From a phage: a stretch of DNA of 64,000 nucleotides. How positions within the stretch are numbered: the first letter of the stretch is position 1; every line of letters begins with the position of its first letter. A program made the position numbers and the translations under genes. The notes under the pieces are model-generated. The model was given only the letters and a program-made list of their open reading frames with translations. It was not told where the DNA came from and did no database searches. The DNA lies in sequence record PZ386947.1. One strand, 5' to 3'. Shown one piece after another: positions 37,480-39,372 of this stretch.

Positions 37480-37555
37480 TGGTCGAGGCAGTAGGGATCG
37501 AACCTACGACCTAGGACTTAGAAGGTCCTTGCTCTTCCTTCTGAGCTATGCCCCG
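37480..37555 (-). tRNA. tRNA-Arg (anticodon UCU)
   Basis: hand-folded cloverleaf: 7 bp acceptor stem, T-arm GTAGG-TTCGATC-CCTAC, anticodon loop CTTCTAA, encoded CCA. Confidence 0.85.
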
Positions 37556-37659
37556 TAATTGGGGTGACCGATGGGAGTCGAACCACCCGAGTCGCAATGA
37601 CAATGGATTTACAGTCCACACCGCTACCTCTACGGGATAACTCCCCTTAATTCTTAATT
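37556..37659 (-). ncRNA. tRNA-like element of uncertain identity (degenerate tRNA or stable small RNA)
   Basis: fills the gap between tRNA-Ile and tRNA-Arg; has GGTTCGACTCC T-loop-like motif, acceptor-like 3' end ending CCCCA, and a hairpin with GUA in a 7 nt loop, but no canonical cloverleaf. Confidence 0.3.
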
Positions 37660-37734
37660 TGGTGGCCCTGGGTGGAATTGAACCACCATCTGGCGATTAT
37701 GAGTCGCTTGCTTGAACCTTCCAGCTACAGGGCC
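37660..37734 (-). tRNA. tRNA-Ile (anticodon CAU, presumably modified to read AUA)
   Basis: matches recalled T4 tRNA-Ile; T-arm GGTGG-TTCAATT-CCACC; anticodon loop CTCATAA; encoded CCA. Confidence 0.85.
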
Positions 37735-37735
37735 T

Positions 37736-37811
37736 TGGTGCTGATTGACGGAATCGAACCGCCGACCTTCTCATTACAAGTGAGTTGCTCTACCTACTGA
37801 GCTAAATCAGC
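37736..37811 (-). tRNA. tRNA-Thr (anticodon UGU)
   Basis: GCTGATTTAGCTCAGTAGG...ACTTGTAATGA...GGTTCGATTCC...CAGCACCA; 1 nt spacer from tRNA-Ile. Confidence 0.85.
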
Positions 37812-37816
37812 AAAAC

Positions 37817-37906
37817 TGGCGGAGGCGATAGGATTTGAACCTATGAGTCGCCGGAGCGACTGCCGGTTTTCAAGACCGGTGCATTAAACCACTCTGCCAC
37901 GCCTCC
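37817..37906 (-). tRNA. tRNA-Ser (anticodon UGA), long variable arm
   Basis: matches recalled T4 tRNA-Ser (GGAGGCGTGGCAGAGTGG...CTTGAAAA...GGTTCAAATCC...CCTCCGCCA). Confidence 0.9.
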
Positions 37907-37912
37907 AAATAT

Positions 37913-38563
37913 TTATATATTGTTAATTTGATTTAGAATTCTTTTTGCTTGAGTATGACTTACGCCAATATGCTTAGCATATTTAGACAATTCGCCACGT
38001 TTAGAAAAATCATATAATTTAGAAATTTCTATTCTTCTTTTTCTTTCATCCGCAGAAACTTTTGCTTCGTTTGCTTTTGCTATTTTACGTTTAGCTTCTT
38101 GAGAATGAGTTTTACCAGCAAAGCCATTCTTCATTAATCCATTTGAAGACCATCCTTTTAATTTTCCGTTAGAATGTGCCTTTTTAACACCCAATGAAAT
38201 TAATTCGCGTTGCTGATCTGTCATAGGATAATTATTTATATGATCCCATCCACCTTCACCTCCAAGTTTTAAATTATACACATCTGGTCTATTTAAAAAC
38301 TCTTCTGTGACAATATTTTTCTCGGCTTCAAGCATAGATTCTTTATCGTCAAAATACTCTAATATTTCTTTAGAAAAATTTTCTATACCATATTTATCTT
38401 GGGCTCTTTTTAATAATTTACCAGAACCCATATATCCATCATCTAAATTTTCGGTAGAATGCACACCAATATAAATTTTATTATTAATTTTATTTGTTAT
38501 TTTATAAAGATAAAAATGCATATCAGTCCCTAATAAAGAACTGAGCGTCTCACGACGAGTCAT
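37913..38563 (-). CDS. GIY-YIG homing endonuclease (Seg-like) inside the tRNA cluster
   Basis: 216 aa; GIY-YIG core YLYKITNKINNKIYIGVHS...GYMGSGKLL; C-terminal HTH-like region; wedged between tRNA-Gly and tRNA-Ser. Confidence 0.8.
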   Translation of the reverse strand: MTRRETLSSLLGTDMHFYLYKITNKINNKIYIGVHSTENLDDGYMGSGKLLKRAQDKYGIENFSKEILEYFDDKESMLEAEKNIVTEEFLNRPDVYNLKLGGEGGWDHINNYPMTDQQRELISLGVKKAHSNGKLKGWSSNGLMKNGFAGKTHSQEAKRKIAKANEAKVSADERKRRIEISKLYDFSKRGELSKYAKHIGVSHTQAKRILNQINNI

Positions 38564-38567
38564 AAAT

Positions 38568-38641
38568 TGGAGCGGATAATGAGAATCGAACTCACATCAT
38601 CAGATTGGAAGTCTGAGGTAATACCATTATACGATATCCGC
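38568..38641 (-). tRNA. tRNA-Gly (anticodon UCC)
   Basis: GCGGATATCGTATAATGGTATTACCTCAGACTTCCAATCTGATGATGTGAGTTCGATTCTCATTATCCGCTCCA. Confidence 0.85.
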
Positions 38642-38646
38642 AAATT

Positions 38647-38733
38647 TGGTGCGAGAAGTGGGACTCGAACCCACAAGGAAATCATTCCGCAGCATTTTAA
38701 GTGCTGTGCCTTTACCAATTTGACCATTCTCGC
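38647..38733 (-). tRNA. tRNA-Leu (anticodon UAA), long variable arm
   Basis: matches recalled T4 tRNA-Leu (GCGAGAATGGTCAAATTGG...CTTAAAA...GGTTCGAGTCC...TCGCACCA). Confidence 0.9.
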
Positions 38734-38739
38734 GCTATA

Positions 38740-39372
38740 TTATTTATTACGTGAAAAAGACTGTTCTATCAATTCTGGACACTTTCGTTCTATCCATTTT
38801 CTAGCTTTTTGTGGGCTTATACCTATTATTTTAGCAGCTTTACTAACCCATCCAAATTTAGAATAATCGATTTTAACTAATTCTTCGTAAATTTCATCAG
38901 TTAAAATCTTTTCATTAATATTTACCAGTAAATGATATAATTTATTATCATTAGCAATTTTAATGAATCTTTTATAGTTTCCGCCTTTACTTAAACCTAA
39001 TGAAGTAATTGCAGATGATATAGTAGCCGAATTTAATAGTGCGTTTAAAATTTCTTCATCACTAACATTATAACGCTTTTTATTATTTTTAATATTTTTA
39101 CCAGCAAAAGTATCAGTTTGCGAATGGCAGTTTGGACATAATAATCTTAAATTTGATTTAAGATGATTTTTGTTATTTCCATCAATATGGTCTAATTGCA
39201 GAACAATATGCTTATTTTGCCATTTTGAAATTTTACAAATTGCACACTCATATGGAAAAATATTTTCTTTTATTATTTTGTCTTTCAGCTTTCCTGTACT
39301 AAAATTTGGATGTTTTCCTTCAAAAATTTCAGCTAATTTAGTATCCATAATATGATTCCCAATTATTAACAA
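38740..39372 (-). CDS. HNH homing endonuclease abutting tRNA-Leu
   Basis: 210 aa; CAIC...LQLDHIDGNNKNH...LRLLCPNCH HNH/zinc-finger core; C-terminal HTH-like segment; stop 7 nt from the tRNA-Leu 5' end. Confidence 0.75.
   Translation of the reverse strand: MLIIGNHIMDTKLAEIFEGKHPNFSTGKLKDKIIKENIFPYECAICKISKWQNKHIVLQLDHIDGNNKNHLKSNLRLLCPNCHSQTDTFAGKNIKNNKKRYNVSDEEILNALLNSATISSAITSLGLSKGGNYKRFIKIANDNKLYHLLVNINEKILTDEIYEELVKIDYSKFGWVSKAAKIIGISPQKARKWIERKCPELIEQSFSRNK

Follow-up and report, generated by a model that had tools for sequence, protein, structure and literature searches.

How did two homing endonuclease genes (HEGs) come to lie inside a phage tRNA operon, at the positions where phage T4 has tRNA-Gln and tRNA-Pro? 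The locus lies at 37480-39372 of a 64,000-nucleotide stretch of phage DNA (sequence record PZ386947.1), referred to as a whole as the window. Bases 36700-39500 of the window are 100% identical to Shigella phage CM8 (MK962750 / NC_054939, Tequatrovirus), and the region is the tRNA operon of a T4-like phage. All annotated features of the CM8 record map one-to-one to the window; an apparent size difference of 486 bp between the two was an artefact of joining BLAST pieces. We refer to the phage below as CM8. Its record labels the two open reading frames (ORFs) 'HNH endonuclease' and 'SegB-like protein / homing endonuclease', and the locus is a further example, publicly annotated and uncharacterised, of the known SegB-type homing endonuclease traffic in T-even tRNA clusters. 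We think it probable that two free-standing HEGs colonised the operon, each with the collateral loss of a dispensable tRNA. An earlier note, made from the sequence alone, had proposed endonuclease-driven gene replacement within this operon. Precise, single junctions against T4-type alleles support the replacement; that endonucleases drove it is what we infer.

Two slots in the tRNA operon

Exactly six tRNAs are called in the 64 kb by both ARAGORN and Rfam, every one of them on the minus strand, and the CM8 record likewise has six tRNA genes only (gt001-gt006). Together these bear out the gene order read earlier by eye: on the minus strand, an HNH ORF, tRNA-Leu, tRNA-Gly, a GIY-YIG ORF, tRNA-Ser, tRNA-Thr, a tRNA with a CAU anticodon, a pseudo-tRNA and tRNA-Arg. 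The features, in that order, are as follows.

39353-39361, minus: 5' stub of tRNA-Gln, TGGGAATCA (T4: TGGGAATTA), from alignment of CM8, slur14 and PBM-1 with T4, ime09 and KIT03
38740-39348, minus: putative HNH homing endonuclease gene, 202 aa plus stop, in a cassette at 38737-39352 (profiles, alignment; identical junctions in 64 phage records)
38647-38733, minus: tRNA-Leu(UAA) (taa), by ARAGORN and Rfam
38568-38641, minus: tRNA-Gly(UCC) (tcc), by ARAGORN and Rfam
38522-38562, minus: leader of the GIY-YIG gene with a 9-bp hairpin at 38544-38523 (fold and terminator-like scan match)
37913-38521, minus: putative GIY-YIG homing endonuclease gene, 202 aa plus stop, a SegB chimera, in a cassette at 37908-38562 (profile searches, alignment to T4 segB)
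37817-37906, minus: tRNA-Ser(UGA) (tga), by ARAGORN and Rfam
37736-37811, minus: tRNA-Thr(UGU) (tgt), by ARAGORN and Rfam
37660-37734, minus: tRNA with CAU anticodon, T2-type allele, counterpart of T4 tRNA-Ile (ARAGORN, Rfam, allele comparison)
37560-37646, minus: pseudo-tRNA, tRNA-Tyr nt 1-73 fused to tRNA-His nt 52-76 (comparison with relatives; sub-threshold tRNA score)
37480-37555, minus: tRNA-Arg(UCU) (tct), by ARAGORN and Rfam

The order in T4 is trna.2, Gln, Leu, Gly, Pro, Ser, Thr, Ile, segB, Arg, rnaD, rnaC, and the order given in the earlier note, from Gln onward, was right. So was the failure to see tRNA-Pro or tRNA-Gln by eye: ARAGORN and Rfam find neither anywhere in the 64 kb, and the T4 Pro and Gln genes, used as BLAST queries, matched only T-loop words of 10-13 nt. 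A permissive Rfam scan of 36700-39600 for Pro or Gln remnants gave the pseudo-tRNA as its sole extra tRNA-like match. The CAU tRNA had been taken for tRNA-Ile. It is indeed the counterpart of T4 tRNA-Ile, but it is a T2-type allele that ARAGORN calls Met, and its identity as Ile is by analogy.

Both replacements are precise. At the Pro slot, homology to T4-type alleles runs through tRNA-Gly, its CCA and ATTTA; the 655-nt GIY-YIG cassette (38562-37908) then stands in for ATTTA, tRNA-Pro and C, and homology resumes one base before tRNA-Ser, with zero nt of Pro left at the slot. At the Gln slot, 9 nt of tRNA-Gln are followed by the 616-nt HNH cassette, which replaces the tRNA from about nt 10 to about nt 71 and ends three bases (AGC) before tRNA-Leu. 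The HNH ATG lies four bases beyond the stub. A tRNA-Gln 5' end in front of the HNH start codon means that Gln is older than the cassette.

We counted the alleles in about 510 Tequatrovirus records; the counts are approximate, since GenBank/RefSeq duplicates and near-clonal isolates are among them. An intact Gly-Pro-Ser is present in 448 records versus Gly-GIY-Ser in 57, and upstream-Gln-Leu is intact in 448 versus HNH-Leu in 64, so that the HEG-free state is the majority at each slot and 88-89% of records carry Pro and Gln. Each slot shows the presence/absence pattern of a HEG: one polymorphic locus, flanks that are 97-100% identical, and a single junction. At a threshold of at least 95% identity, the C-terminal domain of the GIY-YIG protein is found in 56 records and the HNH protein in 64, and the same junction accounts for every carrier, so each insertion has a single origin. 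A scan of IMG/VR with the tRNA-Gly sequence gave 2 loci only, too few for an independent census.

All four allele combinations exist. Both tRNAs are present in T4 and ime09; KIT03 combines Gln with the GIY-YIG gene, slur14 combines the HNH gene with Pro, and CM8 and PBM-1 carry both nuclease genes. The cassettes are separated only by Leu and Gly (170 bp) and assort independently, with 6 records carrying both versus about 7 expected under independent assortment. The tRNA-Gly and tRNA-Ser flanks are 100% identical between HEG-carrying and HEG-free alleles. Thus, any sequence that discriminates the alleles would lie in the replaced segment or across the junction.

Two putative nucleases and their relatives

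Both ORFs carry the endonuclease motifs that had been noticed in them. The protein in the Pro slot matches Pfam PF01541 at 26.8 bits (cut-off 22.6), SegE_GIY-YIG at 25.8 (cut-off 25) and phrog_314 (2e-54), and it carries a NUMOD3 motif. It starts MHFYLYKITNKINNKIYIGVH and has Y17 and G19 of the YIG motif, which mutational data found essential in T6 SegB (PMC13096335). Nucleotides 14-281 of the ORF are identical to T4 segB at 266 of 268 positions (99.3%, two differences), and the catalytic domain is 97.8% identical to that of T6 segB at the nucleotide level. Unrelated to T4 segB are the leader, codons 1-5 of the ORF and its 3' 326 nt (which align at 51%). Because its C-terminal half is unrelated, the protein is not a full-length SegB of the T4/T6 type. 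That half (NUMOD3 plus a helix-turn-helix, HTH) matches phrog_16521 and the HEGs of Jiaodaviruses. By sequence comparison, then, the gene is a chimera of a segB-type catalytic domain and a different DNA-binding half. Judged by its sequence, the protein very probably works like SegB, and the unrelated leader and C-terminal half suggest that its target is probably different from that of T4 SegB.

The GIY-YIG gene almost certainly starts at ATG 38521, 46 nt past tRNA-Gly. A start at ATG 38563 was rejected; that codon is made by the junction itself and is unconserved in the Jiaodavirus homologues. The earlier note had put the ORF 4-6 nt from both neighbouring tRNAs, which applies to the 3' side only (6 nt). 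It had also placed the HNH ORF upstream of tRNA-Leu, correctly, with a 7-nt gap that is in fact another 6 nt.

The leader of the GIY-YIG gene is predicted to fold into a hairpin whose 3' arm contains the Shine-Dalgarno sequence AGGGA, with the AUG one base after the hairpin. The leader is conserved in Jiaodaviruses, where two differences keep the pairing (A-U to G-U, U-G to U-A). Hairpins over the ribosome-binding site are known for segB, I-TevI-III and mobE (PMC2988022, PMC2330249). We also considered whether the leader sequence ACTCGTCGTGAGACGCTCAGTT, which by eye resembles tRNA-Pro, could be a 5' remnant of that tRNA, and rejected this: the same leader precedes the Jiaodavirus HEG despite an intact Pro, and it folds into conserved hairpins. 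At the other end of the gene, the T4 late-promoter consensus TATAAATA (37910-37917, minus strand) overlaps the stop codon and lies 3 nt short of tRNA-Ser. The window contains 16 copies of the motif versus about 10 expected, which is indistinguishable from chance.

The protein in the Gln slot matches phrog_14736 'HNH endonuclease' (5e-124) and ten more HNH PHROGs. Against Pfam PF01844 it scores 17.3 bits, just under the cut-off of 21.4; many of its homologues have precomputed PF01844 or PF13392 matches. In a 30-sequence alignment, residues C35, C38, H54, N66, C71, N73, C74 and H75 are invariant, in the pattern CxxC...DH...N...CPNCH, with the His-Asn-His catalytic motif and zinc-binding cysteine pairs. 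The protein also has the beta-beta-alpha-metal fold. On this basis the protein is a member of the HNH superfamily that only distantly resembles the enzymes of T5 type. The predicted fold over the HNH ribosome-binding site was no better than that of shuffled sequence (z = -1.6). A sequence search of the PDB gave no match for the GIY-YIG protein and noise only for the HNH protein, and Foldseek against the PDB gave no significant match.

Relatives of both genes occur among the tRNAs of other genera. Besides the roughly 56 Tequatroviruses, where it is always in the Pro slot, the C-terminal half of the GIY-YIG protein is found in Klebsiella Jiaodaviruses, in Aeromonas and other T4-like phages, and in the 'trna.1' ORF of T2. 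In Jiaodaviruses KP13MC5-5 and Mineola and in Tulanevirus Aes012 the arrangement is Gly, HEG, Pro, and the HEG stop codon overlaps or abuts Pro. The KP13MC5-5 homologue is full length with the same leader, and its N- and C-terminal domains are 71% and 85% identical to those of CM8 at the nucleotide level; the N-terminal domain of the Mineola gene is 96% like that of KP13MC5-5, and the middle region differs (62%). Such uneven identities indicate modules with separate histories, which is a known mode of HEG evolution. In Karamvirus KMB17, Gly and Pro are adjacent without a HEG. The Gly-Pro pairings of these other genera and the Gln stub of CM8 mark the HEG-free state as the older one. On a divergent T4-like contig, a homologue of the HNH protein (68% identity) begins 14 nt past an intact tRNA-Gln and lies downstream of homologues of trna.2-4, and further relatives lie among the tRNAs of Edwardsiella phage PEi20 and T5-like Salmonella phage HMD-P4, in the latter directly after tRNA-Ser and tRNA-Met. 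Two of these genes are unannotated in their own records: the SegB-like HEG between Gly and Pro in KP13MC5-5 (stretch 2169-2815) and the HNH homologue between Leu and Met in PEi20 (about 1300-1760).

The two CM8 proteins also share a C-terminal module. The T2 trna.1 family, phrog_16521, matches the C-terminal parts of both (1e-12 and 2e-4), and their terminal HTH stretches are 50% identical over 24 residues. In every context that we inspected, ORFs with this module lie inside a tRNA array: between Asp and Lys in EcS1, between Asn and Tyr in Aeromonas phage 31, after Asp in KMB17, and between Ser and Met as trna.1 in T2. There is some possibility, although we would not bet on it, that the NUMOD3+HTH module is a DNA-binding module specialised for tRNA-gene arrays, repeatedly joined to different nuclease heads to give 'slot-specific' HEGs, one per tRNA junction, across the Straboviridae. 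If so, HEG traffic, more than translational need, would largely set the T-even tRNA set, that set would in turn determine exposure to tRNA-targeting host defences, and fusions such as the Tyr/His and Pro/Thr fusions described below would be scars of this traffic.

The T2 locus (stretch 2185-2718) retains about the first 15 nt of tRNA-Thr, and the trna.1 ORF (133 aa, phrog_16521) fills the slot up to the CAU tRNA. The C-terminus of trna.1 matches the DNA-binding half of the CM8 GIY-YIG protein; its N-terminus (…CRFGDKGPYSLNNIYCATNNQN…) by eye resembles a portion of an HNH-type motif, and upstream there is a short out-of-frame ORF. trna.1 may be a decayed HEG.

Proposed origin and spread of the cassettes

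We propose that a SegB-family GIY-YIG enzyme whose DNA-binding half has been swapped and an HNH enzyme distantly resembling those of the T5 tRNA region each entered the operon once, as a compact cassette (leader, ORF, 6 nt, next tRNA). Entry would presumably have occurred at co-infection, when a HEG-less phage repaired a double-strand break or nick made within or next to one of its tRNA genes, and homing and recombination would then have spread the cassettes through the Tequatroviruses. The dispensable neighbouring tRNA would have been lost in the same event: the whole of tRNA-Pro, and tRNA-Gln except for its first 9 nt. Its loss would remove or disrupt the sequence that marks a HEG-less allele, and the carrier genome would be protected. 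Both ORFs would be transcribed within the tRNA precursor from the upstream middle promoter, and the hairpin that covers the ribosome-binding site of the GIY-YIG ORF would hold this ORF down further, as in T4 segB.

Because the same HEG lineages adjoin intact tRNA-Pro or tRNA-Gln in other genera, the natural home of each HEG is probably a junction at a tRNA (Gly/Pro for one, the 3' side of Gln for the other), and the Tequatrovirus alleles seem to have lost the tRNA collaterally and not of necessity: HEG residence elsewhere does not need the loss. The same coexistence can be turned against the proposal, and it is one of several points that weigh on that side. The tRNA loss could be an unrelated deletion. 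The DNA-binding half of the GIY-YIG enzyme differs from that of T4 SegB. The alleles are at frequencies of about 11-12%, with no sign of a sweep, in a census that contains duplicates and near-clonal isolates. Finally, the Tyr/His fusion could be due to replication slippage or be an assembly or laboratory artefact.

Among the alternatives, we give some credence, well short of that given to collateral loss during homing, to the idea that the nucleases are kept because they benefit the phage. They could exclude tRNA-region markers of co-infecting relatives or, like T6 SegB, promote segmental amplification of tRNA or anti-defence genes under tRNA-targeting defences. In T6, SegB causes tRNA-Tyr to be amplified against Septu, and distant anti-defence genes as well (Chihara et al. 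2026, PMC13096335). The CM8 enzyme shares the catalytic domain of T6 SegB, and both CM8 ORFs are intact, with 100% protein identity across many isolates. However, the DNA-binding half is unlike that of T4 and T6 SegB, no repeats or amplification are seen in CM8, and a phage without tRNA-Tyr, Asn, His, Pro and Gln is the opposite of one with a boosted tRNA dosage. A benefit to the phage would be compatible with homing.

We regard it as unlikely that the cassettes are passengers brought in by ordinary illegitimate or homologous recombination, with nucleases that are inactive or irrelevant today and a distribution that reflects T-even mosaicism. The low allele frequencies would fit, RB68 carries a copy annotated as truncated, and the region is mosaic otherwise, with a 171-aa ORF, a 116-aa ORF and the Tyr/Asn/His set each present or absent depending on the phage. 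Nevertheless, neither ORF is shortened and both have kept their catalytic motifs, one catalytic domain is nearly identical to that of an enzyme of proven activity, and conservation of the hairpin over the ribosome-binding site extends across genera. Moreover, in three or four genera the same HEG lineages occupy the same junctions at tRNAs, which fits site-specific homing and is unexpected from random recombination. That the endonuclease arrangement is ancestral, with Pro and Gln gained later by other Tequatroviruses, is very improbable: although HEG homologues do exist between Gly and Pro in other genera, we found no support for it, and it is contradicted by the truncated tRNA-Gln before the HNH ORF, by Pro and Gln beside the HEGs of other genera, by the Gly-Pro adjacency in KMB17 and by the HEG-free majority.

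Among known systems the closest is T4 SegB, the proven homing endonuclease of this operon, which cleaves tRNA genes at their 3' ends and excludes T2L tRNA markers (Brok-Volchanskaya et al. 2008, PMC2330249). It is reported to recognise a T-loop motif, GGTTCRANTCC, and to cut 3' of CCAR in tRNA genes (PMC2330249). In both phages a gene with the same catalytic domain abuts the next tRNA, has a hairpin over its ribosome-binding site and lies where relatives carry tRNAs (T4 lacks the Tyr, Asn and His of T2L), but the slot is between Ile and Arg in T4 and between Gly and Ser in CM8. T6 SegB is also embedded among tRNA genes but is an enzyme of T4 type in the arrangement Tyr, segB, Arg, and the amplification and anti-defence roles belong to T6. 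A general co-localisation of SegB homologues with tRNAs has been reported (PMC13096335), as has a SegB homologue among the tRNAs of Mineola in the announcement of that genome (PMC6486255). The HEGs of Mineola, KP13MC5-5 and Aes012 are full-length homologues that share the CM8 leader and the position directly after tRNA-Gly; they differ in being followed by an intact Pro, whereas CM8 has no Pro and has exchanged the catalytic domain for one of T4 segB type.

The nicking enzymes F-TflI, F-TflII and F-TflIV of T5 are, like the CM8 HNH protein, HNH enzymes within a phage tRNA cluster, and some GenBank records name proteins of the CM8 type 'F-TflIV'. The resemblance to T5-like proteins is limited to 32-35% identity over 84% of the length, and the domain order differs, the T5-like protein having an N-terminal HTH. 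HNH genes in the T5 tRNA region are also cited in the work on SegB (PMC2330249). A more general parallel is the reported replacement of mobC and mobE by SegH and Hef among T4-related phages (Sandegren et al. 2005, PMC1275590; cited in PMC10448857). There too, HEG traffic gives alternative genes in one slot across T-even phages; there, however, a HEG replaces a HEG, whereas in CM8 a HEG replaces a tRNA gene.

Our literature search returned no paper describing the chimera in the Pro slot, the HNH gene in the Gln slot, the four-allele pattern or the Tyr/His fusion, and no paper discussing the tRNA region of CM8. The locus adds two uncharacterised putative homing endonucleases to the classic T4 SegB system. 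It changes no concept: that HEGs inhabit T-even tRNA clusters and evolve by modules is already established, and so is marker exclusion. It does provide a clean natural experiment, with four allele combinations in one operon, one catalytic domain on two different DNA-binding halves, and HEG lineages that elsewhere stand beside the intact neighbouring tRNA. These features make target prediction and testing by crosses straightforward. The locus also bears on work about how phage tRNA repertoires change under tRNA-cleaving defences.

Operon signals and deletion scars

Two further features bound the operon; the promoter was read from the sequence with the general MotA-box consensus.

39431-39455, minus: middle-promoter-like site, with MotA box TGCTTTA (39455-39449), 12-nt spacer and -10 TATTAT (39436-39431), by sequence reading
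36778-37111, minus: distal operon end, with rnaD (36997-37111), rnaC (36852-36990) and an intrinsic-terminator-like hairpin (36778-36801), by BLAST and terminator scan

The promoter-like stretch is conserved in T4, ime09, KIT03 and slur14. In T4, a middle promoter for the tRNAs and segB lies just upstream of the cluster, and segB is read from it within the tRNA precursor (PMC2330249). Both CM8 ORFs end 6 nt short of the following tRNA, so their mRNAs would be trimmed by RNase P cleavage, as has likewise been proposed for segB (PMC2330249). A 171-aa ORF (39448-39963, minus strand) lies directly upstream of the promoter, and its stop codon overlaps the MotA box. It is present in CM8, KIT03 and T2 and absent from T4, ime09, slur14 and PBM-1; the HNH cassette is found with both upstream haplotypes, which places a recombination boundary right at the promoter.

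At the distal end, rnaD and rnaC are 99.1% and 98.6% identical to those of T4, and neither is annotated in the CM8 record. A 116-aa ORF (37111-37461, minus strand, phrog_3355) that T4 lacks lies between tRNA-Arg and rnaD/rnaC, and its stop codon overlaps the start of rnaD. On the divergent T4-like contig with the HNH homologue, about 400 nt after the HNH gene (3100-3510) are non-coding and include an rnaD-like stretch, GTCGTCGAACTGACGTTCCCTG versus GTCGTCGGACTGATGTTCCCTG in CM8, which hints that the small stable RNAs may be conserved more widely.

The tRNA-like remnant of the earlier note is a sub-threshold tRNA-like element, and we can now name it: a fusion of tRNA-Tyr and tRNA-His. The crossover lies in a shared 11-nt T-loop, GGTTCGACTCC (37574-37584), and tRNA-Asn and a 113-nt spacer are deleted. 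The fusion scores 22.7 bits on the tRNA model (threshold 29 bits), is called by neither ARAGORN nor Rfam, and has unpaired acceptor and T stems. Among the 30 best records, only CM8 matches it in a single piece. GGTTCGACTCC fits the SegB core motif GGTTCRANTCC, which is also present in neighbouring tRNA genes, and tRNA-Asn is the preferred site of T4 SegB (PMC2330249). The simplest account, and an attractive one, would be a nuclease break within the array that was mended when two T-loop repeats annealed.

Two other phages have deletions in their arrays. The 'tRNA-Thr' of T6 (stretch 2575-2660), which ARAGORN does not call, consists of the first 7 nt of tRNA-Pro and of tRNA-Thr from the D-arm on; the crossover lies in the shared D-arm TAGCTCAGT, and the rest of Pro and the whole of Ser are deleted. 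In ime09 (stretch 3080-3095), tRNA-His and the 113-nt spacer are missing, and CCAA at the end of tRNA-Asn is joined to the CCAAT after tRNA-His, with a CCAA microhomology. This joint is a CCAR-type end, after which T4 SegB reportedly cuts.

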